64,000 bases of DNA from Pseudomonadota bacterium (GTDB lineage Bacteria; Pseudomonadota; Gammaproteobacteria; Burkholderiales; JABEVD01), in the NCBI GenBank assembly GCA_021802655.1, contig JAJZRP010000003.1, positions 1,024 through 65,023 of the forward strand, in the 5' to 3' direction. Below the pieces are notes generated by a model. The model was given only the letters and a program-made list of their open reading frames with translations. It made no database searches and was not told where the DNA came from. Position numbers and translations under genes: made by a program. Below are positions 17,116 through 52,141 of this stretch, piece after piece (within the stretch, counting starts at the first letter, position 1; each line of letters starts with the position of its first letter).

Positions 17116-17117
17116 GC

Positions 17118-23034: not shown

Positions 23035-23279
23035 AAGGGCTGATCCTGGCTTTCATGCTGCTGCCTGCCATTTCCAAAGCCGATTCCTTCGGCAGGTTTT
23101 TTTTCACCCCCCAGGAGCGCGCCATGCTGGATCGGCAGCATCGGCAGCCGGGACAAATCGCTTTGAAGGGCATGGTTCAACAGGAAAGCGCGACCGGTTC
23201 GGTCGAATTGAAAGGCGGAGGGAAGACGGTCTGGATAAACGGCGTTCCGCGCCATATTGAACCGGTGCAGAAGAAATGA
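23031..23279 (+). CDS. Small exported protein (PilP/MshK-like position)
   Basis: Signal peptide; GRFFFTPQERAMLDR and TVWING; coupled on both sides. Confidence 0.6.
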   Translation: MKGLILAFMLLPAISKADSFGRFFFTPQERAMLDRQHRQPGQIALKGMVQQESATGSVELKGGGKTVWINGVPRHIEPVQKK

Positions 23280-24502: not shown

Positions 24503-25272
24503 CTTATACAGGGGATTTAAACCAACAAGCTGGATTCACCCTTATCGAAATCGCGGTGGTATTGGTGGTCATTGCCTTGCTGCTCGGGGGATTGTTAGTG
24601 CCCCTGACCGCCCAGATCGACCTGCAAAAGATAAGAGAAACCCAAAATTCTCTTGATGAGATCAGAGAGGCACTCATTGGCTATGCCATCATCAATGGGA
24701 GGCTGCCTTGCCCGGCAGACGGCACTATCCCGACCGGACAGACCAACTCTGCCGGTGTGGCCGCCGGTCAGGAGTACAGGAACCCTGTTGCCGGTTCGCC
24801 CTATGCTTGTGCCAATGTGGTCGGCAATGTCGCAGTGGGCGTGCTGCCCTGGGTTACATTGGGAGTCAAGGAAACTGATGCCTGGGCGCGGCGTTACACC
24901 TATGAAGTCACGGCGACCTGGGCGGACAGCAAGGATGGTACGGGATTATCAAGCTGCAGTGTGGTGAATGGCGTTTCCTTCCAATTGTGCTCAAATGCAA
25001 ACCTGGACATCTTGTCCACAGTCGGCGGAACCAGCATCGCTGCCAATATCCCAGCAGTCGTCGTTTCACACGGCAAGAATGGTTTTGGTGCGTACACACC
25101 AAACGGTGGCGCGCGCTTGGGCACGAGCAGGGATGCTGATGAAGCAGAAAACAGTAATGGCGATGTTAATTTCGTTTCCAAGCCAATGACACCGACTTTC
25201 GATGATATCGAGATATGGGTATCGCCCAGCATCCTCATGAACTTGATGGTTCAGGCGGGAAGACTGCCTTGA
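24499..25272 (+). CDS. Prepilin-type N-terminal cleavage/methylation protein (minor pilin)
   Basis: QQAG|FTLIEIAVVLVVIALLLGG; GRLPCPA and DAWARRY. Confidence 0.85.
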   Translation: MTYTGDLNQQAGFTLIEIAVVLVVIALLLGGLLVPLTAQIDLQKIRETQNSLDEIREALIGYAIINGRLPCPADGTIPTGQTNSAGVAAGQEYRNPVAGSPYACANVVGNVAVGVLPWVTLGVKETDAWARRYTYEVTATWADSKDGTGLSSCSVVNGVSFQLCSNANLDILSTVGGTSIAANIPAVVVSHGKNGFGAYTPNGGARLGTSRDADEAENSNGDVNFVSKPMTPTFDDIEIWVSPSILMNLMVQAGRLP

Positions 25273-26024
25273 TGACGATCGCCCGCTATACCCTGATTGA
25301 AGCCCTGCGCAGCAAGGTCTTGTGGCTTGCGCTCCTGCTCGCCGTTCTGGGATTCGGTTTTTCGCTGTTTTTGCAGCAGATTGCAGTCACTGAAAGCAGG
25401 CAAATCCAGTCCGGGGCGCTGGCGATGATTTACAGGCTGGGCGCGGTTTTCATCCTGTGTTCGTTCGTCGTGTCCGGCATGCTGCGCGATTACCACGACA
25501 AGGCTCTTGAATTTTTTCTCGCCATGCCGATGAGCAGGGCCAGCTATGGCTTCGGCAAACTTTCGGGTTATGCGGCCTGTTCCCTGATCCTGTCCATTCT
25601 GCTGTGCATTCCCCTGCTGTGGAGCAATGCGGCAGGTACGGTACTGCTCTGGGGAGTTTCGCTTTTCCTGGAACTCGTTCTGATGAGTTCGGTCAGCTTC
25701 TTTTTCGCGATCACGCTCACCCAGATGCCTTCCGCTCTTGCCGCGGCCTTCGGCTTTTACCTGCTTTCGCGCGCCATGGGTACGCTCATCCTGATCGTGA
25801 ACGGGCCTCTCGCAGGGCATGATTTGCTCCGGAGAATAGGGAGCATGGTCCTTTCGGCCATCGGTTTTTTGCTGCCCAGGCTGGACGAATTCACCCGCAC
25901 TGCATGGCTGGTCTACCCTGGTTCAGACTGGCATGAACTCCTTTCTGTCGCGGCTCAAACAGCCATTTATTCGGTTTTGATATCGAGCGCTGCGCTTTTC
26001 GATTTTTACAGGAGGGAGCTGTGA
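25272..26024 (+). CDS. ABC-2 type permease (PilI-like)
   Basis: IARYTLIEALRSK and LAMPMSRASY..GK; about six TM segments; ATG at 25272. Confidence 0.78.
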   Translation: MTIARYTLIEALRSKVLWLALLLAVLGFGFSLFLQQIAVTESRQIQSGALAMIYRLGAVFILCSFVVSGMLRDYHDKALEFFLAMPMSRASYGFGKLSGYAACSLILSILLCIPLLWSNAAGTVLLWGVSLFLELVLMSSVSFFFAITLTQMPSALAAAFGFYLLSRAMGTLILIVNGPLAGHDLLRRIGSMVLSAIGFLLPRLDEFTRTAWLVYPGSDWHELLSVAAQTAIYSVLISSAALFDFYRREL

Positions 26025-26695
26025 ACCGGATTGGCGTCATTCTGGCTTCGGCGCTCATGCTCCAGTTGCTTTGGCACGCCGCCATGCCCTGGGAAGGCGC
26101 CAGGGCGCAGGCGCTGCAGAGTCCGCCGGCGCTGACCGCATTGCGCCTGGCAAGCCTGGACGAATCGGTCATGGCTTCGAGATTCGTGATGCTCTATCTC
26201 CAGGCCTTCGACATTCAGCCTGGCGTCATCATTCCCTATCGAGACCTCGACTACGGCATCGTTCAAAAATGGCTGGAAGCGAGCCTGGATCTCGACACAA
26301 GCGACAAGTATCCTCTGTTCGCAGCGACCTATTTCTATGCGGGCGTGAAGGACGAAAGGAAAACCCGGAGCATGCTCGATTTCATTTCCAGGGAATTTTT
26401 GAGTGATCCTGAAGGGAGATGGCCGTGGCTGGCAAGCGGGGCATTGATCGCCAAATACGAATTGCACGATTTGCCGCTTGCGCTCGAGTATTCCGAGGCG
26501 TTACGGAAAGACGCGACAGGGGCGCCCAACTGGGTGCGGGAAATGTCGATATTCACGCTGGCAGACATGAACCGGTTGGACGCTGCGAAAATAGTGCTCG
26601 GCGGACTGCTTGTCGACGGCAGGATAAAAGACCCGAACGAGATCGCTTTCCTGAAGAGGCGGCTTGATCGCATCGGCAGGTTTTCCGGCCGGTGA
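26021..26695 (+). CDS. Membrane-anchored helical protein (PilG-like, inferred)
   Basis: N-terminal TM then helical repeats (LD..KYP..AA..Y, RWPW, DLPLALEY, GAPNW); GTG overlaps the permease stop. Confidence 0.55.
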   Translation: MNRIGVILASALMLQLLWHAAMPWEGARAQALQSPPALTALRLASLDESVMASRFVMLYLQAFDIQPGVIIPYRDLDYGIVQKWLEASLDLDTSDKYPLFAATYFYAGVKDERKTRSMLDFISREFLSDPEGRWPWLASGALIAKYELHDLPLALEYSEALRKDATGAPNWVREMSIFTLADMNRLDAAKIVLGGLLVDGRIKDPNEIAFLKRRLDRIGRFSGR

Positions 26696-26756
26696 GCAGA
26701 AGATTTCGCATATGCTATGGTGAAAATGAATGCAATTTCTATGAACAGGGGAAATC

Positions 26757-27458
26757 ATGAAAACGTCGGGGCAAGGGGGGTTCACTTTGGTGGAGATCGC
26801 CATTGTGCTGGTGATCGTGGGGCTGCTGCTGGCTGCCGTAATGAAGGGCCAGGAAATGGTTACGCAGGGCAAGATCAAGGGCACGATATCCGACTTCAAC
26901 AGCGTGCTGACTGCCTACAACGGCTACCAGGACCGCTACAAGGCGATTCCCGGTGACGATTCGGGCGCGGCAGCGCGCTGGCCAACCGGCGCATTCGGCA
27001 CGGATTCGGTCGCTGCGGTGAATGGAAACGGGGACGGCGTGATCGCCGGATTGTATTCGGCCAACCTGGGGGCGGATGCTGCGCCGACAGCAACCCAGGA
27101 AAGCAATCTTTTCTGGCAGCATTTGCGCGCTGCAGGTTTCTATGCCGGGATACAGACCGGAAACGGGAGCGGAACCCTCCCCACCAATTCCGTCGGCGGC
27201 ACCATCGGCGTCGAAAACGACACGACCAGTACGGCCGGCATCAGAATGGGCGGCATACTGATTTGCCTCACCAGCATTCCGGAGAAAATCGCCACTGCCG
27301 TCGACAGGCAGATCGACGACGGCGATGCGACCATGGGATCGGTGCGCAGCCTCGCCATTGCTTCTGCAACGCCAGTGGTGCTTCCCGTGCTGACATCCGC
27401 TTCGCCAGTCGCCTACGTCTCCGGCAGCAGCTACGTGATGTGCCGTTCGGTCCTCTGA
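26757..27458 (+). CDS. Type IV pilin-like protein 1
   Basis: GQGG|FTLVEIAIVLVIVGLLL; YQDRYKAIPGDD; two Cys. Confidence 0.88.
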   Translation: MKTSGQGGFTLVEIAIVLVIVGLLLAAVMKGQEMVTQGKIKGTISDFNSVLTAYNGYQDRYKAIPGDDSGAAARWPTGAFGTDSVAAVNGNGDGVIAGLYSANLGADAAPTATQESNLFWQHLRAAGFYAGIQTGNGSGTLPTNSVGGTIGVENDTTSTAGIRMGGILICLTSIPEKIATAVDRQIDDGDATMGSVRSLAIASATPVVLPVLTSASPVAYVSGSSYVMCRSVL

Positions 27459-27461
27459 AGC

Positions 27462-28145
27462 ATGCAAGCCAGGCATTCAGGTTTCACGCTGGTCGAGATC
27501 GCGATTGTTCTCGTGATCATCGGTTTGCTTCTTGGGGGGGTTCTGAAAGGGCAGGAAATGATCACGCAGGGCAGGATCAAGAATGCGATCATCGATTTTT
27601 CCGGCATCACTGCAGCCTATTATGCCTATCTGGACAGGTACAGGGCGCTTCCCGGCGACGACAGCCAGGCAGCCACCCGGTGGGGAACGTCGATTCTTCC
27701 CGGCGGAGAAAAGGGCGACGGAAACGGCGTGATCACCGGCCTCTACAATGCAACCGGCACCCCGCTCGCCGAATCGCAGATTTTCTGGATGCATCTCAGG
27801 GCGGCGGGGTTCGTGACGGGTTCCGCAGCTTCCCCCAAGCAGCCCGTCAATTCGGCAGGCGGCATAATCGGGGTGCAAACCGGGGATGGCGCAGCTTCCC
27901 CGACCGAAGTCCTGACCACCGACAGCCTTTCCGGGACTGGGATTTCGAGACTCATGATCTGCTCGTCGGGGCTTGCGGACAGGGTGGCTGCCGCAGTGGA
28001 TGCCCAACTCGACGACGGCATTCCCAAGACCGGGAGCCTCCGGGCGCAAAAAACCAAATCCCAGGACACGATAGAAAGCGCCGCCTATGCGCAGCCCTAT
28101 TCGGATACGGGATCGACTCCGTTCACGATCTGCAAGGTGCTCTAA
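27462..28145 (+). CDS. Type IV pilin-like protein 2 (paralog of the upstream gene)
   Basis: HSG|FTLVEIAIVLVIIGLLL; YLDRYRALPGDD; two Cys. Confidence 0.88.
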   Translation: MQARHSGFTLVEIAIVLVIIGLLLGGVLKGQEMITQGRIKNAIIDFSGITAAYYAYLDRYRALPGDDSQAATRWGTSILPGGEKGDGNGVITGLYNATGTPLAESQIFWMHLRAAGFVTGSAASPKQPVNSAGGIIGVQTGDGAASPTEVLTTDSLSGTGISRLMICSSGLADRVAAAVDAQLDDGIPKTGSLRAQKTKSQDTIESAAYAQPYSDTGSTPFTICKVL

Positions 28146-40264: not shown

Positions 40265-41139
40265 TGTCCATACTTGTCGACAAGAACACCAAAGTGATGA
40301 CGCAGGGCATGACCGGGAAAACCGGCATGTTCCATACGCTGCAGTGCAAAAATTATGCGAACGGAGTCAACTGCTTCGTCGCCGGGGTGACTCCCGGAAA
40401 GGGCGGACAGAACTTCGAGGGCATTCCCGTTTTCGACACGGTGAGGGAAGCGAAACATTCGACGGGAGCCGCCGTTTCGGTGATCTACGTCCCGCCTCCT
40501 TTCGCCGCTGCGGCGATCCTGGAGGCGGTCGAAGCGGAGCTCGATCTCGTGATCTGCATCACCGAAGGAATCCCGGTCCACGACATGATCAATGTCAGAT
40601 ACCGAATGGAGGGAAAAAGGACGCTCCTCATCGGGCCGAATTGCCCCGGGATCATCACTCCGGACGAAATCAAGATCGGGATCATGCCCGGCCATATCCA
40701 CAAGAAGGGCAGGATAGGGGTGGTGTCGAGATCGGGAACGCTGACCTACGAAGCCGTCGGGCAATTGATGGAAGTCGGCCTCGGGCAGTCTTCCTGCGTC
40801 GGCATAGGCGGAGATCCGGTCAGCGGATTGAAGCATATCGACGTGATGAAGCGCTTCAACGAAGATCCTGAAACCGATGCGGTCATCATGGTCGGGGAAA
40901 TCGGCGGAAACGACGAGGAAATCTGCGCGAAGTGGATCAGGGACAACATGCAAAAACCGGTGGTCGGATTCGTCGCCGGGCTCACCGCGCCTAAGGACAA
41001 GCGCATGGGGCATGCAGGCGCGATCATCTCGGGCGGGGAAGGCGGGGCCGAGGAAAAGCTGGCGGTCATGGAGGAATGCGGAATCAGGGTGACGCGCAAT
41101 CCTTCCGAAATCGGCAGGCTCCTGAAGTCGGTTTTATGA
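40264..41139 (+). CDS. sucD: Succinate-CoA ligase alpha subunit
   Basis: [15 protein letters not shown] and MGHAGAI (phospho-His). Confidence 0.95.
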
Positions 41140-41210
41140 ATTCCGGGCTGCGCACCGCATCCCGCCTGATGGTGCATAATTTGTTGGAATGAGTTCATTT
41201 GAAATATGAC

Positions 41211-42020
41211 ATGGATTTAAGCCGCGCTCTCGAAATCGCCAGCCGGTCCGATACCGGGCGGGTGCGATCCCACAACGAGGACAGCATCGCTTGCGACGCG
41301 GCAACCGGCCTTGTCGTTCTGGCAGACGGCATGGGCGGATACAATGCCGGGGAAGTGGCGAGCGGGATTGCGGTGACGTTGATGGCTTCCTGCGTAAAGG
41401 AAGCGTTGGCGAGAGCCGACGAGATGGATATTAAAAGCGGGGAGAGTCTGCTGCGCGGTCAGGTGATTGCGGCAAACAGCGCGATTTTCGACGCTGCGCA
41501 AAGCAGGACGGACTATGCGGGAATGGGTACGACGGTGGTCGCTGCGCTGTTTTACGACGACAGGGTGAGCGTCGCGCATCTCGGGGACTCCCGGCTGTAC
41601 AGGCTGCGCGATGAGAAACTGGAGCTTTTGACGCGCGACCATTCGCTGCTTCAGGAGCAACTGGACAGGGGCATGCTTACCCTCGAGGAGGCCAGGGTTT
41701 CCCGGCATAGAAACATCGTGACGCGCGCGCTTGGCGTCGAGCGGGAAGCAGAGGTGGAAGTCGGGAGCTTCGATGTCCTGCCGGACGACATTTATCTGCT
41801 ATGTTCGGACGGGTTGAACGATATGCTCGATGACGAGGAAATCCGGCTTGCCGTTCAGACATTGAAGTCGAACATGAAACTGGCAGCGGACCAACTCGTC
41901 GAACTTGCCAATGAAAATGGCGGGCGCGACAATATCTCGGTTATCCTGGTCAAGGTGAAACAGAGTTTCGCTGTCCGCAAGGGGCTGATTGCAAAACTCA
42001 GGTCGTCTTTCAGAAAATGA
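41211..42020 (+). CDS. PP2C-family (Stp1-like) Ser/Thr phosphatase
   Basis: RSHNEDS, ADGMGG, MGTT, GDSRLY, LCSDGL and GGRDNIS; start 41199 or 41211. Confidence 0.93.
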   Translation: MDLSRALEIASRSDTGRVRSHNEDSIACDAATGLVVLADGMGGYNAGEVASGIAVTLMASCVKEALARADEMDIKSGESLLRGQVIAANSAIFDAAQSRTDYAGMGTTVVAALFYDDRVSVAHLGDSRLYRLRDEKLELLTRDHSLLQEQLDRGMLTLEEARVSRHRNIVTRALGVEREAEVEVGSFDVLPDDIYLLCSDGLNDMLDDEEIRLAVQTLKSNMKLAADQLVELANENGGRDNISVILVKVKQSFAVRKGLIAKLRSSFRK

Positions 42021-42033
42021 AGGGGCAGCTTCC

Positions 42034-42705
42034 ATGTCGAAATTGATCCTCAGCCTTGAAGACGGAACGCTCAAGGAATACCGGCTCGACAGGGAACGCA
42101 TCCGGATCGGGCGGAAACCCGGCAACGATATCCGGATAAACGATGCCGCAGTGAGCGGAGAGCATGCCCTCGTCATCACGATTCTCAACGATTCCTTCCT
42201 GGAGGATCTGGCAAGCACGAACGGCACGAAAGTGAACGGAAAACCTGTCGAGAAATGCTTCCTTCGGCATGAGGACATCATCGAGATCGGGAAATTCAAG
42301 CTGACCTATGTTCATGAGGATGCGCCTGCGCCGGATTTCGAAAAAACCGTCATGCTGCGCCCGCTTGCCTCGCCCGCCATGCTGCCTGCTTCCGCTTCAA
42401 CTCCTGACGTCGCGCCTCAACCGCAGTCGCCCCCAGCCGGGCAGGCCATGGCGGCGATGCGGCTTCTCACCGGCCCGAGTGCGGGCAGGGAACTCGATCT
42501 GGTCAAGAACCTGACCACGCTCGGCAAGCCCGGGGTGCAGGTCGCGTTGATCACGAGACGCCCGCAGGGCTTTTTCGTCGCGCATGTGGATGGGGACAGA
42601 TCGCCGGTTCTGAACGGGCAGGCCATCGGCTTTCAGTCGCATCCGTTGCAAAATCACGATATCCTGGAGCTGGTGGGAATCAGGATGGAATTTTTTCTCA
42701 GGTAG
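42034..42705 (+). CDS. FHA-domain protein (intact N-terminal FHA, degenerate C-terminal FHA-like domain)
   Basis: IGRKPGNDI, VSGEHA and DLASTNGTKVNG; Pro/Ala linker; second domain ends LQNHDILELVG. Confidence 0.9.
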   Translation: MSKLILSLEDGTLKEYRLDRERIRIGRKPGNDIRINDAAVSGEHALVITILNDSFLEDLASTNGTKVNGKPVEKCFLRHEDIIEIGKFKLTYVHEDAPAPDFEKTVMLRPLASPAMLPASASTPDVAPQPQSPPAGQAMAAMRLLTGPSAGRELDLVKNLTTLGKPGVQVALITRRPQGFFVAHVDGDRSPVLNGQAIGFQSHPLQNHDILELVGIRMEFFLR

Positions 42706-42717
42706 GCGGACAGAAAA

Positions 42718-43482
42718 GTGAAGCTCAGAATTCTTGGGTGCAGCGGAGGAATAGGCGGTGCATTGCGAACCACCTCCTTTCTGCTGGATCACGATGTGCT
42801 GATCGATGCCGGCACCGGCGTGGGCAATCTCTCCCTTGAGGAGATGAGCAGGGTCGACCATGTTTTCCTGACGCACGCCCATCTTGACCATATCGCCTCG
42901 CTTCCCCTTCTCGTGGACAGCGTGGGCTATCTGAGGGGAAAACCGGTCACCATTCATGCGATTCCGGAGACGATATCCGCCCTGCGGCAGCATATCTTCA
43001 ACGATGTGATATGGCCGGATTTCGGCAGGATACCCACTCCGGAGTCCCCCTATTTGCGTTACGAGGCTGTCGTCCCGGGAAAAAAGACGGATCTTGCGGG
43101 GCGCAGCATCACCCCGCTGCCTGCGAACCATACGGTTCCCGCAGCGGGCTATCATCTGGACAGCGGAGAAGGAAGCCTCGTATTCAGCGGCGATACGACG
43201 ACCAACGATGCGCTCTGGGATGCGGTCAACCGCATTTCGAATCTGAAATATCTGATCGTTGAGACGGCTTTTTCAGACGGGGAGCGCGAGGTCGCAGTGC
43301 TATCCAAACATCTCTGTCCCAGCCTGCTCGGGATCGAACTCAAGAAATTCAAGGGGAATGTGCCGATCTATATCACCCATCTCAAACCCGGCGAGATGGG
43401 CCTCATCATGCAGGAAGTCGAACAAAATGCGGAGGGCGTGATGCCTCGGATGCTGTTAAACGATCAGGTTTTCGAGTTTTGA
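42718..43482 (+). CDS. Metallo-beta-lactamase-fold 3',5'-cyclic-nucleotide phosphodiesterase (class II-like)
   Basis: ILGCSGG, IDAGTG, THAHLDH, HIFNDVIWPDF, SGDT, HLCP and ITHLKP. Confidence 0.85.
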   Translation: MKLRILGCSGGIGGALRTTSFLLDHDVLIDAGTGVGNLSLEEMSRVDHVFLTHAHLDHIASLPLLVDSVGYLRGKPVTIHAIPETISALRQHIFNDVIWPDFGRIPTPESPYLRYEAVVPGKKTDLAGRSITPLPANHTVPAAGYHLDSGEGSLVFSGDTTTNDALWDAVNRISNLKYLIVETAFSDGEREVAVLSKHLCPSLLGIELKKFKGNVPIYITHLKPGEMGLIMQEVEQNAEGVMPRMLLNDQVFEF

Positions 43483-43483
43483 C

Positions 43484-45868
43484 ATGACCGGACTGACGGA
43501 GAGGAGCAGCGACGGCATGCCTGCAGTTCAGGAGAGCCTTGCCGATGTCAGCATCAAGCTGAATTTTTCCAGGTCCCTCCAGGCCCTGACCAACAGGATC
43601 CATGCCACAAGCAATATCGACGAGATCATATTCGATCTCGGCAACGACATCTGCACGCTTTTCAATGCCGACAGGGTTACGATTTACGTGATCGGCGAGG
43701 ACAGGACTTCGATCATCTCGAAGGTCAAGACAGGTCTGTCCTCTTTCAAGGACTTGAAGCTGCCGATTTCCGAGCAGAGCATTGCAGGATATGCCGCATT
43801 CCACAAGAAGGTACTGAATTTGAAGGATGTGTACGACGAGAAGGAGCTTCAGTCCTACAGTCCCCACCTGCATTTCATGCGCGAGGTCGACAAGAGAACC
43901 GGCTACAGGACCAAACAGATGCTCGTTGCGCCCATCGTCGATGCCGCCGACAACGAACTGGTCGGCGTGCTGCAGATCATCAACAACAAGTTGGGGCTGC
44001 CTTTCCAGCCCATGGCAGAGGAGGGGATGGTCGAATTTGCCAAGACCCTCGCCATCGCCCTCAAGCAGCGGCAGCGTTCCCATCAACTCGTCAGGACGCG
44101 CTTCGATCTTTTGATCGCGGACGGCGTGATTTCGGCAGTCGAGTTCGATCTTGCGTCACGCTCGGCAAGAAGGCGCGGGGTGCCGATCGAGGACGTGCTC
44201 ATCGAAGAATTCCAGGTCAAGCTGTCCGACCTCGGAAGATCGCTCGCCCATTTCTTCGGGGTGGAATACGAACCCTTCAAGCCCGACAGGATCAGGCCGC
44301 CGGATCTCCTGAAAAACATCAAGCGCGACTATGTCGAGACGAATCAATGGGTTCCCGTCGACGAGACAAAGGATGGGCTGATCATCATCAGCCCGGACCC
44401 GGAGAGGGTGCAGGCTTCGCGCATCGTCAACAATGTTTTTCCCAAGCACAAATTGATCTACAGGGTCTGTACGCTGCGGGAATTCGCTCAGACCGTCGAG
44501 CAGTTCTACGGCAGCGGAGAAGGCAGCTCTTCCATAGGAGAATTGCTTTCTTCCATGGATGGGGAGAGCGAAAGCGAGGATATTTCAGACGAGATATCCG
44601 CTGCCGCAGACAACGAGCTCGTCAAGCTGGTCAACAAGATCATCGTCGATGCCCACAAAATGGGCGCCTCGGACATCCATATCGAGCCTTATCCGGGGAA
44701 GGGGAAAATCCAGGTGCGCTTTCGCAAGGACGGAACGCTGCTGCCCTATGTCGAGATTCCTTCGACCTACCGGAATGCCATCGTGGCCCGCATCAAGATC
44801 ATGTGCGAGCTGGACATTTCTGAAAAAAGACGGCCGCAGGACGGGAAAATCCAATTCAGGAAATTCGGGCCGCTCAACATCGAACTGCGGGTCGCCACCA
44901 TTCCTTCGGCCGGCGGGGTGGAGGATATCGTGATGCGTATCCTGGCTTCCGGGGAGCCCATTCCCATCGAGAAAATCGGCCTTTCGAAGCATGCTCTCGA
45001 AACGCTCAAGGATATTGTCACCAAGCCTTACGGTCTGTTCTTCGTTTGCGGACCGACGGGTTCCGGAAAAACGACGACGCTGCATTCCGTGCTGGGATTC
45101 ATCAATACCCCGCAGACGAAAATCTGGACCGCAGAAGATCCCGTTGAAATCACGCAGAAAGGATTGCGCCAGGTGCAGATGAACCCCAAGGCAGGGTTCA
45201 CTTTTGCAGTTGCAATGCGCGCTTTCTTGCGCGCCGACCCCGATGTGATCATGGTGGGTGAAATGCGGGACCAAGAGACCACTGCGGTCGGGATCGAGGC
45301 ATCCCTGACAGGCCACCTCGTCATGTCCACCCTGCACACCAACAGCGCGCCGGAGAGCATCGTCAGGCTCCTGGACATGGGGATGGACCCTTTCAATTTC
45401 GCCGATGCGATTCTGGGTATACTTGCCCAGCGCCTGATCAAACGCTTGTGCAAGCATTGCAAGAGGCCCGAGATTGCCGGCGAGGAAGAGATCAGGAGAC
45501 TGCTTTCCGAATATTGCGAAGAACTGAAGCATACCGAAGCCTGGAAACGGGATTCCGATGCCGTGATGGGGAAGATATACGACGATTGGGTCAGGGCCCA
45601 TGCGAACGAAAAGGGGGAGTTCACGCTCTATCGCCAGGTGGGGTGTCCGGAATGCAGCGGGACGGGCTACAGCGGCCGCCTCGGCATATTCGAACTTCTC
45701 GAGGGGACGGATGCCGTGAAGAAGAACATCCAGGAGCGCGCGCGCGTTTCGGAATTGTTCGCAACCGCGCTTTCGGAGGGAATGAGAACGCTGAAGCAGG
45801 ACGGCATCGAGAAAGTGCTGCAGGGCATCACCGACATGCAGCAGGTGAGATCGGCATGCATAAAATAA
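43484..45868 (+). CDS. GAF-domain-fused GspE/PilB-family ATPase
   Basis: N-terminal GAF (DKRTGYRTKQMLVAPI..LVGVLQIINNK); ASDIHIEP, GPTGSGKTT, LRADPDVIMVGEMRD and CxxC..CxxC. Confidence 0.92.
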   Translation: MTGLTERSSDGMPAVQESLADVSIKLNFSRSLQALTNRIHATSNIDEIIFDLGNDICTLFNADRVTIYVIGEDRTSIISKVKTGLSSFKDLKLPISEQSIAGYAAFHKKVLNLKDVYDEKELQSYSPHLHFMREVDKRTGYRTKQMLVAPIVDAADNELVGVLQIINNKLGLPFQPMAEEGMVEFAKTLAIALKQRQRSHQLVRTRFDLLIADGVISAVEFDLASRSARRRGVPIEDVLIEEFQVKLSDLGRSLAHFFGVEYEPFKPDRIRPPDLLKNIKRDYVETNQWVPVDETKDGLIIISPDPERVQASRIVNNVFPKHKLIYRVCTLREFAQTVEQFYGSGEGSSSIGELLSSMDGESESEDISDEISAAADNELVKLVNKIIVDAHKMGASDIHIEPYPGKGKIQVRFRKDGTLLPYVEIPSTYRNAIVARIKIMCELDISEKRRPQDGKIQFRKFGPLNIELRVATIPSAGGVEDIVMRILASGEPIPIEKIGLSKHALETLKDIVTKPYGLFFVCGPTGSGKTTTLHSVLGFINTPQTKIWTAEDPVEITQKGLRQVQMNPKAGFTFAVAMRAFLRADPDVIMVGEMRDQETTAVGIEASLTGHLVMSTLHTNSAPESIVRLLDMGMDPFNFADAILGILAQRLIKRLCKHCKRPEIAGEEEIRRLLSEYCEELKHTEAWKRDSDAVMGKIYDDWVRAHANEKGEFTLYRQVGCPECSGTGYSGRLGIFELLEGTDAVKKNIQERARVSELFATALSEGMRTLKQDGIEKVLQGITDMQQVRSACIK

Positions 45869-45878
45869 AGAGGATGGA

Positions 45879-47519
45879 ATGAAGGGAGAAACCATGCAAG
45901 AAAGTCCTGTTTCGGGGAAGAATGTCCCCATGGCGGATATTTTCAGGTGGATCGAGGAGCTCAACCATATCGGCGCGGCGCTGTCTGCCGAGCGGGATAT
46001 CGGCATGCTGCTCGAGACGATCCTGCTGGCGGCGATGAAGATCGTGAACGCGGACGGCGGCACGCTCTATCGCGTGATCGACGGCAAATGGATCCGGTTC
46101 GAGACGCTCCGGACCGATTCCCTGGGAATTGCCATGGGCGGCACGACAGGGAAGGAAATCACCTTTCCGCTCATTCCCCTCTACAAGGATAATGGAGAGC
46201 CGAACGACTCGCTGGTGGTGGCCCATGCCGTGCTGGGCGGCAGCACGATCAACATCCGGGACGTTTATCAGGAAAAGGGTTTCGACTTTTCCGGAACGCG
46301 AAAATTCGACGAAATGACGGGCTACCGATCCCGGTCCTTTCTCACCGTTCCGATGAGGAATCACGAGCAGGAAATCATCGGGGTGCTGCAGCTCATCAAT
46401 GCCAGGGACAGGGAAACCGGGGAGATCGTGGGCTTTTCGGATGTGGACCAGAGTTTTGCCGAGTCGCTCGCCTCCCAGGCCGCCATTGCCCTGACGAATC
46501 GGCAACTGATCATCCAGATGGAGGAATTGTTCGAATCCTTCATCAATGTGATCAACAATGCGATCGACAACAAGTCGCCCCATACCGGCAAGCATCTGCA
46601 GCGCGTTCCTGTCCTGACCATGATGCTGGCCGAGGCTGCAAATGCCACGACCGATGGGCCGCTGAAGGATTTTTCGATGACGGACAGGGACAGGATGGAG
46701 CTCCGGCTCGCGGGCCTTTTGCACGATTGCGGGAAAATCGTGACTCCCGTGCATGTCATGGAAAAATCGACCAAGCTCGAGACGATTTTCGACAGGATAC
46801 ACTGCGTCGAGGCCAAGTTCGCAGTATTGAGGCGCGATGCCGAAATAGCCTACCTGAACGGCGTGATCGCTTCTCCTGAAAGAAAACCGGAGCTGGAGCG
46901 GGACTATCGCGCAGCCCTTGCGCAACTGGAAGAAGATCTCGAATTTCTGAACAAATGCAACATGGGCGGAGAATTCATGAGCGACGCGGACGTCGCTCGC
47001 GTCAAGGAACTGGCGGTGCGCCACAAGGTGGACGGGGAAAATCTGCTGTCCGACGACGAGATCGAGAATCTGACGATCAGGCGCGGTACGCTGACCGCTG
47101 CCGAGCGGCAGATCATCAACGGGCACATCGACGTGACGATCGACATGCTGGAAACCCTGCCCTGGCCCAATCGCCTTAAGAACGTGCCAGAATATGCGGG
47201 CGGGCACCACGAAAAGATGGACGGGACGGGGTATCCGAAGGGCCTGAAGCGGGACGAGATGTCGATTCAGGCGAGGATGATGGGAATCGCGGACATTTTC
47301 GAGGCCCTCACTGCGAGAGACCGTCCCTACAAGCAGGGCAAGACCCTGAGCGAGTCGCTTGCCATCCTCGGCAAGTTCTGTCTCGACAACCATATCGACC
47401 CGGATCTGTTCGACGTTTTCATAAGCCGGGGGGTTTATCTCGATTATGCGAACCAGTTCATGAGTCCGGAGCAGATCGACGAAGTCGATCATTCGAAAAT
47501 TCCCGGCTACAGGATGTGA
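45879..47519 (+). CDS. GAF + HD-GYP cyclic dinucleotide phosphodiesterase
   Basis: GAF (FDEMTGYRSRSFLTVPM..IGVLQLIN); LLHDCGK, HHEKMDGTGYP and ADIFEALT..RPYK. Confidence 0.9.
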   Translation: MKGETMQESPVSGKNVPMADIFRWIEELNHIGAALSAERDIGMLLETILLAAMKIVNADGGTLYRVIDGKWIRFETLRTDSLGIAMGGTTGKEITFPLIPLYKDNGEPNDSLVVAHAVLGGSTINIRDVYQEKGFDFSGTRKFDEMTGYRSRSFLTVPMRNHEQEIIGVLQLINARDRETGEIVGFSDVDQSFAESLASQAAIALTNRQLIIQMEELFESFINVINNAIDNKSPHTGKHLQRVPVLTMMLAEAANATTDGPLKDFSMTDRDRMELRLAGLLHDCGKIVTPVHVMEKSTKLETIFDRIHCVEAKFAVLRRDAEIAYLNGVIASPERKPELERDYRAALAQLEEDLEFLNKCNMGGEFMSDADVARVKELAVRHKVDGENLLSDDEIENLTIRRGTLTAAERQIINGHIDVTIDMLETLPWPNRLKNVPEYAGGHHEKMDGTGYPKGLKRDEMSIQARMMGIADIFEALTARDRPYKQGKTLSESLAILGKFCLDNHIDPDLFDVFISRGVYLDYANQFMSPEQIDEVDHSKIPGYRM

Positions 47520-47541
47520 CGAAAAACGTCACTTTGTGACG
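47516..47541 (+). promoter_or_regulatory. Inverted-repeat enhancer (putative PilR-type bEBP binding site)
   Basis: GTGACG-AAAAA-CGTCAC-TTT-GTGACG: three alternating half-sites 70-100 bp upstream of the -24/-12 promoter. Confidence 0.65.
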
Positions 47542-47612
47542 TGAAGTGGCGATCCCGTAAGCGTGTTGCGGGTTCGGCATGATGAATTCAGGGGTTCCGG
47601 CGCTCTTTCGTT

Positions 47613-47629
47613 CTGGCACGCCGCTTGCT
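47613..47629 (+). promoter_or_regulatory. Sigma-54 (-24/-12) promoter of pilA
   Basis: CTGGCACGCCGCTTGCT matches YTGGCACGNNNNTTGCW with exact GG-N10-GC spacing, 60 bp upstream of the pilin ATG. Confidence 0.88.
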
Positions 47630-47688: not shown

Positions 47689-48135
47689 ATGAAGCAAATG
47701 CAAAAAGGCTTTACGCTGATCGAATTGATGATCGTGGTCGCCATCATCGGTATCCTGGCCGCAGTCGCCATCCCGCAGTATCAGGATTACGTCACCCGGA
47801 CCAAGCTGTCCAATGCGGCCACTTTCGCGAATCCGATCAAGACTGCGATTGCCGAGTATGCCCAGGAAAATGGAAACACGGCTTTAGGCGCTCTTGGCGC
47901 CTCGGACTGGACGACCCTTGGACTGAGCGCAGCGCCGACCTTGCCGCCTGAGGTTCAATCCGTAACGATCACTGGGGGAACAATAGCCATGACATTGAAT
48001 GTTCCAGTTGGGACTACTGCAAACCCGACTGTTTCAATGGCCCCAACTGTCGGCTCGACCAGTGTGACCTGGACCAATACCTGTACTCCTGCCGGTAACG
48101 CCAACATGATCAAGGTATTCCCTGGCTGCTCCTGA
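47689..48135 (+). CDS. pilA: Type IVa major pilin
   Basis: [35 protein letters not shown]-terminal disulfide loop C..C ending in Ser. Confidence 0.93.
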
Positions 48136-48213: not shown

Positions 48214-49866
48214 ATGCCTTTTTCCAACAAACCCGTTTTCAGCCTGGATTCCCCATTGCAGGGGAAGGCCCCCTTTCTGATCCTTGCCTTTTTCCTTTTT
48301 GTCGCCATCGATGCCCTTTACGGGAAATTCCTGTGGAATCCTGTGGTTTTCGACGATCACAATTTTTTCAAGAAGGAACTCGTTCAGGGTTACGCTCATT
48401 CGTCCTTCGACTTCAGCCTGAGATGGTTCGCCTATGCATCCCTGGGCTGGACTTACAGGCTGTTCGGCTCGGACCTGATCTGGTTCAGGGCGGGGAACAT
48501 GCTGCTGCATTTCGCGGCCTCCCTGTGCCTTTTTTTCTTTCTGAGACGCCTTTTCAACATCGTGCTGAAGGAGCCATCCGGACTTTCGAACGACTGGCTG
48601 GCCTTTTTCGCCGCGCTGATTTTCGCGCTCGATCCGGTATCGGTCTATGCGGCAGGCTATCTCATCGAGCGCTCGATTGTCATGGCCACAGGATTCGGAT
48701 TCCTGATGCTGCTCGCCTATGTGGAAGGGGTGGTGAGGGAGGAAAAAATATGGTTTTTTCTCTCGGCCCTGTTCTATTTTCTGGCGGTATTTTCCAAGGA
48801 GCATGCAGTCATGCTCCCCGCCGTAGCCCTGGCACTGACACCCCTCCTGAAAAAACCTTCGAAGGACTGGCTGAAGGCGCTATGGCTTCCCCTGGCGCTT
48901 TTTGCCTGCATTGGCATCCTGGTGGTGCTCAAGGCGAAAGGCGTGCTGGGTTCTGCTTACGAGATCTACGGCGCAGCCATGATCGAGTCGGAAAAGATCG
49001 AGGCGTCGAATGCCTATGGCTTGAGCATACTGACCCAGTCCGGGCTTTTCTTCAAGTATCTGCTCCTCTGGCTGTTTCCTGATCCGTCCACGATGTCGGT
49101 GGACATGAGGGAACCCTTAGCTTCCAGCTATTTTGCCATGCCGCGGATTCTGGGATTTGTCGCATTCCTGATCTATCCGGCATTCGCTTTGAGGCTTCTG
49201 CTCAAGGGAGGCAGGGTCGGTTTGGCAGGGTTCGGCCTGCTTTTTCCCTATCTCCTTTTCATGACCGAACTTTCGACCGTCAGGATACAGGAGTCCTTCG
49301 TGCTTTACCGCAGCTACCTCTGGATGGGCGGCTTCTTTTCGGTCCTGCCGTTCGTTTTTTCGAAACTTCCCGCGAAAGCCGCATTCCTCCTGCTGTTCGC
49401 GGCATCCGCAGCCCTTTTTCCGCTCGCGAGGGAAGAACTGGTTTCCTTTTCCAGCCCTGCTCTGTTGTGGGGCGATGCGGCGAGGCTGGTCGAAGGCAGG
49501 TCCGGTCTGGTGGGGATCGACAGGATCTACTACAACCTCGGGAAGGCCGAGCTGGACGAAGGGCGGTATCCCGATGCGATCGGGGATTTCACCAAAGTCG
49601 TCGAGATCAGCCCGAGAGTCTACCAGGCCTGGTATAACCGGGGGTACGCCTACTATTACGATCGGAAACCGGAGCTTGCGATTCATGACTTCGATAGGGC
49701 GCTTGAATTAAATCCGGACTATGCCCAAGGCTATTTCATGCGTGCGCTCGCCTACCGGCAGACGAAGCATGAAGCATCCGCGCTTGCCGATTTCAGGAAA
49801 AGCTGCGATCTCGGCTTTAAAAGAGGCTGCGTCAAATGGAAGGAAGGGAGCGGGCAATTGTTTTGA
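48214..49866 (+). CDS. TMTC-like GT-C membrane glycosyltransferase with C-terminal TPRs
   Basis: First-loop VFDD; NMLLH, ERS, FSKEHAVMLP and YRSYL in a multi-TM region; TPRs (YYNLGKA, WYNRGYAY, YFMRALAY). Confidence 0.72.
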   Translation: MPFSNKPVFSLDSPLQGKAPFLILAFFLFVAIDALYGKFLWNPVVFDDHNFFKKELVQGYAHSSFDFSLRWFAYASLGWTYRLFGSDLIWFRAGNMLLHFAASLCLFFFLRRLFNIVLKEPSGLSNDWLAFFAALIFALDPVSVYAAGYLIERSIVMATGFGFLMLLAYVEGVVREEKIWFFLSALFYFLAVFSKEHAVMLPAVALALTPLLKKPSKDWLKALWLPLALFACIGILVVLKAKGVLGSAYEIYGAAMIESEKIEASNAYGLSILTQSGLFFKYLLLWLFPDPSTMSVDMREPLASSYFAMPRILGFVAFLIYPAFALRLLLKGGRVGLAGFGLLFPYLLFMTELSTVRIQESFVLYRSYLWMGGFFSVLPFVFSKLPAKAAFLLLFAASAALFPLAREELVSFSSPALLWGDAARLVEGRSGLVGIDRIYYNLGKAELDEGRYPDAIGDFTKVVEISPRVYQAWYNRGYAYYYDRKPELAIHDFDRALELNPDYAQGYFMRALAYRQTKHEASALADFRKSCDLGFKRGCVKWKEGSGQLF

Positions 49867-49945: not shown

Positions 49946-52141
49946 ATGTCACCCAAATCCCAAAATTCGATTCATGGCGTACTGCCCGCAGCCCCCCGCC
50001 GCATCCTCATCGTCGATGACGATCCTGTCGTTCTGAAGGCGCTTCTGCATACCTTTCGCCGCGACAACTACCAGATCGTATCCGCCGTCAACGGCGAGGA
50101 TGCGGTGGGGCAACTGGAGCGCTCGCGCTTTAACGTGCTGATTGCGGATTACCGGATGCCGGTGATGGATGGCCTGGAATTGCTCTCGAAGGCGAGAGAA
50201 ATCCAGCCCGGCATGGTCAGGATTCTCCTCACCGTGCAGGGCGACATCGCTCCCGTGATGGGCGCGATCGGCGATGGGCTCGCTTTCAAGTTTGCGATCA
50301 AGCCCTGGAAGGAAGAGGAGCTGCGCACCGTAACCAATCTCGCCATCGAGCAATATGAAAAAGGCAAGGCGGAACTGCCCGAGCAGAAAAAAGCGGCCGA
50401 GATCGTTGCGCTTTCCAAGCTGATGGTGACGAACAGGAGTCAGCTTGCCGTGATGCTCAACAAGCATGGCTTGCTCTCCATGGAGCAGGTGCAGGAACTC
50501 AACCGGCTCCAGGTCGCAAGAAAGGAGCCGCTCATCAAGGTTCTTCTGGAACAGGACTGGGTGACCGAAAAGGAAATCAGGAGCCTGTTGCGCAGGGAAC
50601 TCCAGATGGAGGAAGTTGCGCTTTCCGATTACCAGATCGATGCGGCGGTGGCCTCCCTCGTGCCGATGAGCTTTTGCGAGCGGCAACTCGTCGTCCCGCT
50701 CAAGCTGGAAGGCAAGCGCTTCACGCTTGCAGTTGCAGATCCGCTCGATCTCGGGCTCATCGACGATCTGCGCTTCGTTTCCGGACTCAATATCCATATC
50801 GTCGCGGCGGACATTGCCGCCATCCAGGCCAAGATAAACGAGACTTACCGGCCTGACCATGTGATGGATTTCAGGGATCTGGAAACCCTGCTTTCCAGGA
50901 TCGACCCCTACGAGGGGATAGAGATCGTCATCGACGATGCCGATGAGCAGTCCCTTGAGGAACTCCTGATCGGGGAGGAGCCACCCGCCATCAGGATCGT
51001 CAATGCCATCATACTGGAGGCGATCCGGCTGGGTGCGAGCGATGTTCATGTCCAGCCCAGGGCGAAAAGCGTCGTCGTGCGCTACCGCATAGACGGCGTG
51101 CTGATGGACAAGATCAACATTCCGCTGCAATTGCTGCAATCGATCGTGTCCCGCATCAAGATCATGTCCGAGCTCGACATCAGCGAAAGGCGCAGGCCTC
51201 AGGACGGCAGGATCACCGCCAGAACGTCGATGCGTGTCGTCGATCTCAGGATTTCGACCCTTCCCACCGTCAACGGCGAGAAGGTGGTGATGCGCATCCT
51301 GGACCGAAATTCCAGGATACACAGCCTGGAAGGATTGAGGCTTTCCCAGCCGGATCTCGCCAAGGTGCTCGATTTCGTCGACAAACCTCAGGGCATCATC
51401 CTGGCGACCGGTCCCACGGGGAGCGGGAAGACGACAACCCTGTACGCCCTTTTGCAGCACAATGCTTCCCCCACCAAGAATTATGTCACGATCGAGGATC
51501 CTGTCGAATATTACATGGACATGGCAGGACAGGTGTTGATCCGGGAAAAGATAGGATTGACCTTCCCGGTCGTGCTGCGCTCGATATTGAGGCAGGATCC
51601 AGATGTCGTATTGCTCGGCGAAATAAGGGATTTCGAGACGGCGGAAGTCGCCTTCCATGCTGCGCTCACGGGGCATGTGGTCTTTTCCACGCTCCATACC
51701 AATTCTGCAGTGGCGACGCTCTCCAGGCTTTTCGACCTGGGATTGAAGCCATTCGTCGTGGCTGCCGCTCTGGAAGGCATCATCGCGCAGCGGCTGGTGA
51801 GGATGATCTGCCCCGAGTGCAGGGAGGAGGATCGCATGGCTTCAGCTTTTCTTCCGAGGCTCGGCCCTGTCTTTCTCGGGAATGAAGTCAACGCCTGCAA
51901 GGGAAAAGGGTGCGCGCATTGCAACGGCACGGGTTACAAGGGAAGGCTGGGCATCTACGAGGTGCTCGCTCCCGACGAGGAAATGCGGCACCTCATCGCA
52001 TCGGGTGCGAGCATCCTCGATATCTCGCGAGTTGCACAAAGGATAGGCACTTCGTCCCTGCTGGAAGATGCGCTCGTCAAGGTCAGTCAGGGGCTGACCA
52101 GCGTCGAGGAAGTGCTTCGCGTTCTGGGGCCGCAGGTTTAA
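49946..52141 (+). CDS. Receiver (REC)-domain-fused GspE/PilB-family ATPase
   Basis: ILIVDDD..ADYRMP..LLT..KPW REC domain; ASDVHVQP, GPTGSGKTT, LRQDPDVVLLGEIRD and CxxC pairs. Confidence 0.9.
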   Translation: MSPKSQNSIHGVLPAAPRRILIVDDDPVVLKALLHTFRRDNYQIVSAVNGEDAVGQLERSRFNVLIADYRMPVMDGLELLSKAREIQPGMVRILLTVQGDIAPVMGAIGDGLAFKFAIKPWKEEELRTVTNLAIEQYEKGKAELPEQKKAAEIVALSKLMVTNRSQLAVMLNKHGLLSMEQVQELNRLQVARKEPLIKVLLEQDWVTEKEIRSLLRRELQMEEVALSDYQIDAAVASLVPMSFCERQLVVPLKLEGKRFTLAVADPLDLGLIDDLRFVSGLNIHIVAADIAAIQAKINETYRPDHVMDFRDLETLLSRIDPYEGIEIVIDDADEQSLEELLIGEEPPAIRIVNAIILEAIRLGASDVHVQPRAKSVVVRYRIDGVLMDKINIPLQLLQSIVSRIKIMSELDISERRRPQDGRITARTSMRVVDLRISTLPTVNGEKVVMRILDRNSRIHSLEGLRLSQPDLAKVLDFVDKPQGIILATGPTGSGKTTTLYALLQHNASPTKNYVTIEDPVEYYMDMAGQVLIREKIGLTFPVVLRSILRQDPDVVLLGEIRDFETAEVAFHAALTGHVVFSTLHTNSAVATLSRLFDLGLKPFVVAAALEGIIAQRLVRMICPECREEDRMASAFLPRLGPVFLGNEVNACKGKGCAHCNGTGYKGRLGIYEVLAPDEEMRHLIASGASILDISRVAQRIGTSSLLEDALVKVSQGLTSVEEVLRVLGPQV

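Follow-up and report, generated by a model that had tools for sequence, protein, structure and literature searches.

A block of five co-oriented genes in a 64,000-nucleotide stretch of contig JAJZRP010000003.1 from a Pseudomonadota bacterium of the order Burkholderiales (assembly GCA_021802655.1; the whole stretch is referred to here as the window) is a reduced form of a seven-gene signaling cassette that, in its full form, also carries genes for two CHASE2 proteins, a kinase and an adenylyl-type cyclase. The block encodes a PP2C phosphatase, a tandem-FHA protein, a predicted class II-like cyclic-nucleotide phosphodiesterase, a PilB/GspE-type ATPase with an N-terminal GAF domain, and a GAF-HD-GYP protein, and this arrangement is not a product of chance, as the same genes recur in the same order in other families of the order. 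The reading preferred here, which we hold tentatively and at a little short of an even chance, is that the ATPase is an accessory PilB-type motor which binds cyclic AMP (cAMP) through its GAF domain and is thereby activated as a second driver of extension for the type IVa pilus machine.

Among 201 genomes drawn evenly from the order, the N-terminal 313 residues of the ATPase find a match in 100 (51/116 genera), and the ATPase is represented by at least 6,685 database proteins; the carriers include the cultured iron oxidizers Sideroxydans lithotrophicus and Ferrigenium kumadai. Outside the genus of the window, 53 loci covering about half of the carriers were fetched (14 + 39), hand-picked down the ranking with long contigs preferred. 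Where these loci have enough flanking sequence, the phosphodiesterase gene is found in 43/49, the PP2C and FHA genes in 41/49 each, the HD-GYP gene in 39/48, the CHASE2 cyclase in 27/49, the CHASE2 kinase in 25/49, and a pilin gene in 24/48. All seven genes are present in 20 of the 46 loci for which both flanks are available, and exactly the five-gene set of the window in 7. These 46 loci show 17 gene compositions, with each gene dropped in some lineage and the order fixed wherever genes remain. In a Gallionellaceae-rich set (the best 80 of 109), 30 of 35 loci hold all seven. The expectation of the initial annotation that PP2C, FHA, phosphodiesterase, and HD-GYP genes would be conserved along with ATPases joining GAF and T2SSE domains, and that kinase and cyclase genes would be linked to them in relatives, is thus borne out by the gene-neighborhood counts.

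In the genus of the window, both writers are absent from the locus in all nine genomes, and genome searches for kinase and cyclase confirm the earlier statement that they lie outside the window. An orthologue of the cassette cyclase occurs elsewhere in 4/8 genus relatives. Searches for the CHASE2 domain found none in this genome (a 2.0-Mb assembly, 88% complete) or in the other four genus genomes without a cyclase orthologue (82-99% complete), and they exclude the CHASE2 kinase in 6/9; two members also lack the HD-GYP gene behind the ATPase. Decay of the block after this loss is rejected by the ratios of nonsynonymous to synonymous substitution (dN/dS), which, in comparison with two close relatives without CHASE2, are 0.065-0.071 for the ATPase, 0.06-0.08 for the GAF, 0.13-0.14 for the HD-GYP protein, 0.13-0.20 for PP2C and the phosphodiesterase, and 0.31-0.35 for the FHA protein, with sucD at 0.07. 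All five genes are under purifying selection. Farther afield, distant homologues of the ATPase (~41% identity) are found in 26/301 genomes sampled across the phylum, 25 of them outside the class. Among 16 such loci that were fetched, an HD-GYP protein of the same family adjoins in 8 and a CHASE2 cyclase in 3, in other gene arrangements.

The GAF domain of the ATPase is most closely related, among solved structures, to that of Anabaena CyaB2 (1YKD, E 2.9e-24), followed by those of PDE2A, PmGH, and PDE10A, so that it has both the kinship to the CyaB/phosphodiesterase clade and the pocket residues by which cyclic nucleoside monophosphate (cNMP)-type GAF domains are recognized. These residues are kept almost without exception, with R64 found in 89/89 orthologues, T66 in 88/89, and valine, isoleucine, or leucine at position 81 in 89/89; the arginine and threonine are also retained in 16/16 and 15/16 of the distant homologues. 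The CyaB2 residue to which R64 aligns, R291, presumably contributes to nucleotide binding. In CyaB2, T293 affects the binding of cGMP and I308 that of cAMP (PMC4411481). As the isolated CyaB2 GAF domain prefers cAMP over cGMP just tenfold (PMC4411481), sequence cannot fix the ligand, and the argument for cAMP leans on the neighboring genes. A search of the ESM Atlas with the ATPase GAF domain returned generic GAF clusters only. In the cassette cyclase of the relatives the catalytic residues are intact, and the specificity sites hold Lys532 in 88/89 and Thr606 in 89/89 sequences, a combination which we take to be an adenylyl signature. Together with the phosphodiesterase, which is the most constant neighbor of the ATPase and its sole neighbor in 3/46 loci, this makes it likely that the GAF domain binds cAMP and gates an accessory PilB-type motor.

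The phosphodiesterase itself is predicted to hydrolyze 3',5'-cyclic nucleotides. It scores 51 bits against PF02112 (cut-off 23.7), matching only positions 81-141 of the 340-position profile, and its best solved relative is the yeast class II enzyme Pde1 (4OJV, E 2.6e-9), over the HxFNDxIWPD stretch. H53, H58, D159, and H198 are invariant in 86 orthologues, and the protein combines the HxHxDH motif, the FNDxIWPD stretch, and a score above the Pfam cut-off, as class II enzymes do. A stand-alone paralogue, 46% identical, is encoded at G000:C86 42194-42958. In another locus (L082, 8757-9926), a cNMP_binding-rhodanese gene lies between phosphodiesterase and ATPase, providing a further cyclic-nucleotide receptor in the cassette.

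The motor part of the ATPase appears complete. The Walker A (GPTGSGKTT), Asp box (EDPVE), Walker B (DVIMVGEMRD), and His box (HLVMSTLH) motifs are present, their core residues are invariant in 85 sequences, and the protein has the features that define the PilB/GspE family PF00437. Four zinc cysteines (C656/C659/C721/C724) are found with a 60-residue insert between the pairs. The best solved relatives are PilB and PilF, ahead of GspE, with the Myxococcus xanthus PilB model ranking first. The ATPase scores 479 bits against the model for canonical PilB (TIGR02538, cut-off 675.65), 455 against that for GspE (TIGR02533, cut-off 630), and 396 against that for TfpB (NF053534, cut-off 850), and so lies below all three. 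It does not occupy the position beside pilC and pilD, a GspF-type gene is found in 0/48 loci, and a pilC/pilB (platform) gene adjoins the ATPase in 0/48 loci of the order, with pilC in 2/44 further loci.

Between the GAF and motor domains lies an MshEN domain, which the initial annotation overlooked. In MshEN domains that bind c-di-GMP, two motifs of the form RLGxx(L/V/I)(L/V/I)xxG..LxxxLxxQ are present (PMC5013675). Aligned to M. xanthus PilB, the corresponding stretches here read TRFDLL..SA and PIEDVL..HF; both have lost the arginine, glycine, and glutamine, as in 89 orthologues, and a regular-expression search of the domain with the consensus found no match. Because of this loss, the motor is predicted not to read c-di-GMP, and c-di-GMP binding by it was rejected. 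The proposal that the operon couples cyclic nucleotides, Ser/Thr phosphorylation, and c-di-GMP to an alternative pilus motor therefore finds support only in its first part, for which a cNMP-type GAF domain on an intact PilB-type ATPase without a platform gene of its own speaks; direct coupling of phosphothreonine or c-di-GMP to the motor finds no support. Two kinds of relatives vary this architecture. In a sister ATPase family (L038-L045, L048), about 50% identical, an unannotated N-terminal domain of ~200 residues replaces the GAF domain and several MshEN repeats occur, one of them with RLG. At two loci (L173 2417-3739, L187 2385-3770), the gene next to that of a distant GAF ATPase encodes a GAF-MshEN protein that lacks a complete ATPase domain and may be a decoy or a regulatory paralogue.

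Which machine this motor would serve must be judged from the rest of the genome. The canonical pilB-pilC locus, pilM, and PilT-like ATPases lie elsewhere in the assembly, with pilN/O/P/Q-like genes, named from sequence appearance alone, next to pilM. PilM is found in 99/100 order genomes that carry the ATPase and in 66/101 that do not, a contrast exaggerated by relatedness among the genomes, by their size, and by divergent PilM proteins that went undetected; a PilM match, one of them weak, is also present in all 26 distant carriers. Directly behind the block lies pilA, the product of which is the only canonical-PilA-type prepilin found in the assembly. The adjacency pointed out in the initial annotation is real, but it says less than was supposed, as pilA has a sigma-54 promoter motif of its own and the sucD-pilA order is also seen without the ATPase. 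The motif is the sole match in the window with one mismatch allowed, and sigma-54-like motifs occur in 63/63 spacers between HD-GYP and pilin genes versus 79/1143 coding windows and 19/103 stretches upstream of PP2C. A pilin gene follows sucD in 7 of 20 ATPase-negative order genomes (the higher-scoring of 39 with a sucD match), in 4 of the 7 with no cassette gene between, so that the order of sucCD and pilA does not depend on the ATPase. For this reason, adjacency to pilA was rejected as proof of a role in pili.

A number of these observations weigh against the preferred reading. The ATPase fails the PilB, GspE, and TfpB cut-offs alike; its core is ~40% identical to PilB, MshE-like, and REC-fused ATPases without distinction; and the GAF ATPases form a clade of their own with the sister family (SH-aLRT 100) in a quick tree of 38 rows that has SH-aLRT support only and long outgroup branches. 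The link to pilA says little, the PilM contrast carries the biases given above, and none of the 16 distant loci has a pilin, FHA, PP2C, or phosphodiesterase gene nearby. Extension ATPases are usually machine-specific (PMC11656802), and the window holds a second set of secretin, ATPase, and platform genes (15358-28145, + strand: three prepilin-like genes with a secretin, an MshE/GspE-like ATPase, and a T2SSF platform), an MSHA-like or type II secretion cluster and possible alternative platform. The slight selectivity of the CyaB2 GAF domain also belongs here, as does one genus member (G003, 96% complete) that keeps such cassette genes as its contig shows and yielded only two divergent cyclase-like genes. 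Some of these points favor a different reading, in which the cNMP-gated ATPase powers a different filament or a secretion machine, such as that of the 15358-28145 cluster, or, as a regulatory subunit, tunes or blocks the canonical PilB, for example in mixed hexamers. Equal distance to the three kinds of ATPases, a separate clade, the insert in the zinc domain, a canonical PilB already present beside pilC, distant homologues without a pilin neighbor, and a pilA adjacency independent of the ATPase would all be explained. Of the rivals this one retains the most, but it is unlikely, as the best matches are PilB-type by both score and structural model, PilM is nearly universal among carriers, and the catalytic motifs are all invariant, as expected of a working motor.

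The preferred reading of the ATPase leaves the phosphothreonine genes to be placed. The phosphatase belongs to the Stp1/IreP family of PP2C enzymes, scoring 248 bits against NF033484 (cut-off 230) and having the metal-binding aspartates of the family; the residues of its HNED, DGMGG, GDS, and GRDN motifs are invariant or nearly so in 79 orthologues. The FHA protein consists of an intact FHA domain (residues 1-95), a disordered linker with a conserved threonine, and a degenerate FHA domain (residues 138-223), in agreement with an AlphaFold model that has two all-beta domains joined by a low-confidence linker. The first domain matches the FHA domains of GarA, OdhI, and FhaA and has the phosphothreonine residues (GR, SxxH, NG), with R27, S41, and H44 each in 79 of 82 rows and N63 in 80, three rows being truncated sequences; the roles of these four residues are those we presume for FHA domains generally. 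In the second domain, which the initial annotation did not list, GK replaces GR, the SxxH loop is deleted, and STN is replaced, so that the phosphothreonine residues are gone, yet the domain is highly conserved. Pfam and PDB sequence searches gave no match to it and a fold search barely tested it; its assignment to the FHA fold was settled by profile comparison with the first domain (probability 97%, E 4e-11; controls <1%).

The linker motif DFEKTVMLR, with T105 as predicted phosphorylation and docking site, is found in 79/79 full-length cassette orthologues, is absent from the three truncated rows, and occurs in 33/44 FHA proteins of further loci with paralogues counted. No acidic T-x-x-hydrophobic docking motif like that of the linker was found in the ATPase, phosphodiesterase, HD-GYP protein, PP2C, or cyclases, the conserved T-x-x-I/L/V/M sites of cassette proteins falling within folded cores. 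Triads of kinase, phosphatase, and FHA protein also occur in the GarA/OdhI systems and in the type VI secretion system (T6SS) PpkA/PppA/Fha1 pathway.

This phospho-module ranges well beyond the ATPase. The second FHA domain matches in 130 of the 201 order genomes, including 36 that lack the ATPase, and is missing from 6 order genomes that carry the ATPase; it is also found in 84/251 genomes of the class (the unpublished G524 is one of the 84). Outside the order, 22 loci were picked by hand, and in these the FHA gene has a PP2C gene as neighbor in 21, a kinase in 18, a cyclase in 11, an HD-GYP gene in 4, a phosphodiesterase in 2, and an ATPase or pilin in none, these counts covering the neighborhood of the locus rather than an ATPase elsewhere in the genome. 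In 16 ATPase-negative loci within the order, the neighbors are PP2C (14), phosphodiesterase (9), pilin (7), kinase (6), HD-GYP (4), and cyclase (3); three of these loci represent a paralogous pair, and a 74-residue fragment of the ATPase is encoded in one. The description of the operon as built around the ATPase is therefore not sustained, as the kinase-PP2C-FHA(-cyclase) block is far wider and persists without it, and for the same reason the phospho-switch more likely arose to control the cyclase branch, with the ATPase as one output. In a second layout (L203, L206, L207, L240), two tandem-FHA genes accompanied by one or two PP2C genes flank a small lipoprotein-like gene and a kinase gene in divergent placement, the latter matching PEGA weakly; radA/alr/dnaB-like genes adjoin this layout.

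These distributions also bear on the proposal that the neighborhood is a composite, in which an old kinase-PP2C-FHA(-cyclase) module, an ATPase/HD-GYP pair, and a pilin gene have gathered behind sucCD and the phosphothreonine genes and HD-GYP protein serve targets unrelated to the motor in this genus. The company kept by the FHA protein outside the order, the occurrence of FHA protein and ATPase each without the other, and the loss of every gene somewhere, including the HD-GYP gene in two genus members, are what such a gathering would produce. The proposal falls slightly behind the first rival and is likewise unlikely: gene order is fixed where genes remain, the exact five-gene set recurs outside the genus, the link between ATPase, HD-GYP protein, and cyclase reappears in the distant group in another arrangement, and PP2C and FHA protein are under purifying selection without the cassette kinase.

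The HD-GYP protein is predicted to be a binuclear, c-di-GMP-specific enzyme. Its best solved relative is PmGH (4MCW, E 2.6e-29), and it has the features of the family, with the HD, HHExxDGxGYP, ADxxxA, and RPYK motifs intact and RxxK in 118/118 sequences. The position of PmGH E185, which characterizes the trinuclear subfamily, is occupied by histidine here and tyrosine in 114/118 sequences, leaving no acidic residue; the binuclear class tends to stop at pGpG (bioRxiv 10.1101/2021.11.05.467447). The GAF domain of this protein is 25% identical to that of the ATPase and related to those of PDE5, PmGH, and CyaB2. Its ligand is less certain, because glycine replaces the arginine of CyaB2 (Arg291) in 117/118 sequences, an arginine that PDE2 GAF-B also lacks.

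The signals of the missing writers may be supplied in trans in this genus. The genome has one FHA gene and matches to 3 class III cyclases, 4 kinases, 32 GGDEF proteins, and 7 cNMP-binding proteins. Candidate writers are a soluble kinase on contig C12, with intact motifs and best matches (56-62%) lying between PP2C-FHA pairs in four other genomes, and a stand-alone, intact cyclase on contig C39 with Lys/Asp specificity residues and, by sequence match, close homologues in 4/5 relatives tested. That the C12 kinase is a remnant of the CHASE2 kinase was rejected from its median identity of 46%, as against 56-62% to another kinase family. Two divergent cyclase-like proteins, in which DTGDG replaces the Lys-bearing motif, are encoded at G000:C12 1196-3743 (L003/L004) and G000:C69 6106-8298 (L002); one of them is paired with the soluble kinase, and nearly every genus genome tested has both types. 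The C39 cyclase sits among cellulose-synthesis-like genes, and in another genome (L017 11019-16661, G008:C40) bcsB, bcsA, and a C39-type adenylyl cyclase are placed convergently directly behind the ATPase, replacing HD-GYP and pilA genes; as they are on the opposite strand, co-transcription with the ATPase was rejected. That the GAF ligand is instead cGMP or another small molecule, or that the domain mainly pairs hexamer subunits, is improbable: the isolated CyaB2 GAF domain binds both nucleotides (PMC4411481), the ligand of the related PmGH GAF domain is unknown (bioRxiv 10.1101/2021.11.05.467447), and a cognate cyclase was not found in 5/9 genus genomes in which the GAF domain is still conserved, but the linked cyclase has adenylyl-type residues, the phosphodiesterase is so constant a neighbor, the pocket residues and not only the helices are invariant, and this genome and, by sequence match, most relatives tested have a C39-type Lys/Asp cyclase.

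Under the preferred reading, binding of cAMP to the GAF domain would activate the ATPase, which would act as a second motor for extension and borrow the type IVa machine encoded elsewhere, and the phosphodiesterase would remove cAMP locally and reset the motor. Activation rather than inhibition is assumed by analogy with other cNMP-GAF enzymes. PP2C and the tandem-FHA protein would act upstream as a phosphothreonine switch, more likely on the cyclase branch than on the motor as original target, in which a kinase phosphorylates T105, the first FHA domain grips it, and the second changes partner. In parallel, the HD-GYP enzyme would cut c-di-GMP, a messenger to which the motor would be blind, to pGpG. 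The sources of cAMP and phosphate in this genus would be the C39 cyclase and the C12 kinase. Extended to the order, the proposal would be that half the members of this betaproteobacterial group carry an unstudied second extension motor in which a fused GAF domain senses cAMP directly, where MshE-type motors have a c-di-GMP input. This motor would work within a circuit that has its own cAMP eraser, a self-latching tandem-FHA switch, and a c-di-GMP hydrolase, and in this genus that circuit would have been unplugged from its two membrane sensors and rewired to soluble writers; this larger claim is somewhat less probable than the central one.

The layout of the locus (Table 1) agrees with the initial annotation, in that open reading frame calls and Pfam searches recover five same-strand genes with small gaps (13, 12, 1, and 10 nucleotides (nt), all on the + strand) and the named domains. 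Pfam cut-offs are passed throughout (PP2C; FHA; Lactamase_B/PDEase_II; GAF, MshEN, and T2SSE; GAF and HD_5), and an NCBIfam cut-off by PP2C only among the five proteins. The sucCD genes end 59-71 nt before the block, and pilA starts 169 nt past the HD-GYP gene. The reading of the short gaps as a mark of a separate operon was rejected: the ten housekeeping genes ahead of the block have similar spacing, at roughly -20 to +19 nt for the start codons chosen. Between 40900 and 48400, predicted sigma-70 promoters (2, versus 3.2 in shuffled sequences) and terminators (7 versus 7.6) show no excess. Assembled metatranscriptome contigs from three runs of one study, which may derive from DNA and the depth of which cannot rank genes, include in run X1 near-identical pieces of the sucD end (40998-41185), PP2C, HD-GYP, and pilA genes, and pieces of the phosphodiesterase and ATPase genes at 91-94% identity; none among the pieces listed bridges an inner junction of the block. 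A plasmid search found no full-length relative.

Table 1. Genes and smaller features of the block and of the adjoining pilin gene (window coordinates)
Feature	Position	Strand	Remarks
PP2C/PPM Ser/Thr phosphatase (Stp1/IreP family)	41211-42020	+	269 aa; alternative TTG start possible at 41199
Tandem-FHA protein	42034-42705	+	223 aa; PF00498 E 1e-18
Linker motif DFEKTVMLR (T105 being the predicted site of phosphorylation and FHA docking)	42334-42360	+	conserved in orthologues
Metallo-beta-lactamase/PDEase_II, class II-like cyclic-nucleotide phosphodiesterase (predicted)	42718-43482	+	254 aa; THAHLDH
GAF-MshEN-T2SSE, PilB/GspE-type ATPase	43484-45868	+	794 aa
cNMP-type GAF domain of ATPase	43574-44083	+	R64, T66, V81 align to CyaB2 R291, T293, I308
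GAF-HD-GYP phosphodiesterase (predicted)	45879-47519	+	546 aa; ~100-residue insert
Inverted repeat ACGTCAC-AAA-GTGACGT, candidate pilA activator site	47526-47542	.	just past HD-GYP stop
Sigma-54 (-24/-12) promoter motif of pilA, TGGCAC-N5-TTGC	47614-47628	+	exact motif match
pilA, type IVa major pilin	47689-48135	+	148 aa; PF07963 + PF00114

The inverted repeat also appears in the terminator scan as a minus-strand terminator-like stem. Genes for TerC and Usp, which lie between sucD and PP2C in most genus relatives, are absent from this position in the window (41139-41211), a gap shared with the two closest genomes. Behind pilA, a gene for a membrane protein with C-terminal tetratricopeptide repeats (48214-49866, +) is found, as it is behind the pilin in many relatives; only the repeats were matched, and the protein presumably resembles a pilin-modifying glycosyltransferase. 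Two genes past pilA, a second orphan ATPase of 731 residues (49946-52141, +) combines REC, a degenerate MshEN, and T2SSE domains; it occupies the same place in three genus relatives with contigs reaching there and is missing in others.

If the preferred reading is true, a cAMP-binding motor would be a new and fast control point on pili and would explain one spare PilB paralogue carried by many Betaproteobacteria; one report mentions three PilB paralogues (PMC3164672). New here are the loss of writers throughout the genus while selection continues, the finding that the phospho-module ranges more widely than the ATPase, the separate promoter of pilA, and the sucD-pilA control. The writer-less form offers a natural experiment on the interdependence of the parts, and the tandem-FHA protein is of interest independently, as a widespread, predicted phospho-switch that has gone unstudied. 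Full-text searches, for which subscription journals were mostly outside the scope, found no literature that treats the cassette or an extension ATPase that binds cAMP, and the term GAF is absent from the main text of a 2024 PilB review and of the paper on TfpB (PMC8213720). That the initial annotation knew of no characterized pathway of this composition agrees with this as far as the cassette goes; the GAF-MshEN-T2SSE architecture itself was already catalogued in 2016, as one of gamma- and deltaproteobacteria only (PMC5013675 Supplementary Table 4).

That catalogue includes the closest likeness in domain order, Geobacter lovleyi Glov_1971, the printed MshEN stretch of which resembles that of the ATPase (PMC5013675 Supplementary Table 4). 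More broadly, Vibrio cholerae MshE, M. xanthus PilB, and Clostridium perfringens PilB2 share a PilB/GspE-type ATPase, an N-terminal MshEN fold, and input from a nucleotide messenger (PMC5013675, PMC11656802), whereas here the c-di-GMP motifs are lost, a cNMP-type GAF domain stands in front, and the platform gene is unlinked. A precedent for an orphan second motor is Acinetobacter baylyi TfpB, likewise a phylogenetically separate second extension ATPase away from pilC in a genome that also has a canonical PilB (PMC8213720); the ATPase described here is not a member of that family, and a pilus role has been shown for TfpB (PMC8213720), whereas for the present ATPase it is proposed.

Other parts of the cassette have relatives of equally different use. 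Anabaena CyaB2, Lcd1, and Tlr0485 have the same GAF clade and pocket residues as the ATPase (PMC4411481, PMC8846402), and Lcd1 and Tlr0485 are cAMP-activated GAF enzymes (PMC8846402); in contrast to these, the output here is a motor ATPase behind a single GAF domain. Tlr0485 and PmGH also share the GAF-HD-GYP layout, but the HD-GYP protein of the block has glycine for Arg291, a long catalytic insert, and no third-metal glutamate. Mycobacterium tuberculosis Rv1747, in which an unstructured linker joins two FHA folds and holds a conserved threonine, provides a precedent for threonines placed between FHA domains in tandem (PMC8339232). Unlike tandem and self-docking FHA switches, the protein described here is stand-alone, its second FHA domain lacks the phosphothreonine loop, and no T6SS or ATP-binding cassette (ABC) transporter is linked to it. 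Finally, the Pil-Chp/CyaB/Vfr system of Pseudomonas aeruginosa also ties cAMP to type IV pili; as that literature is summarized in the relevant sections of PMC11656802, cAMP controls these pili via transcription, through Vfr, and only c-di-GMP binds extension motors, whereas in the cassette cAMP would act on the motor and be removed by a phosphodiesterase of its own. Seen beside these systems, the cassette is real and widespread and represents an apparently unstudied variant of the messenger-gated pilus ATPases, its parts all coming from known families.

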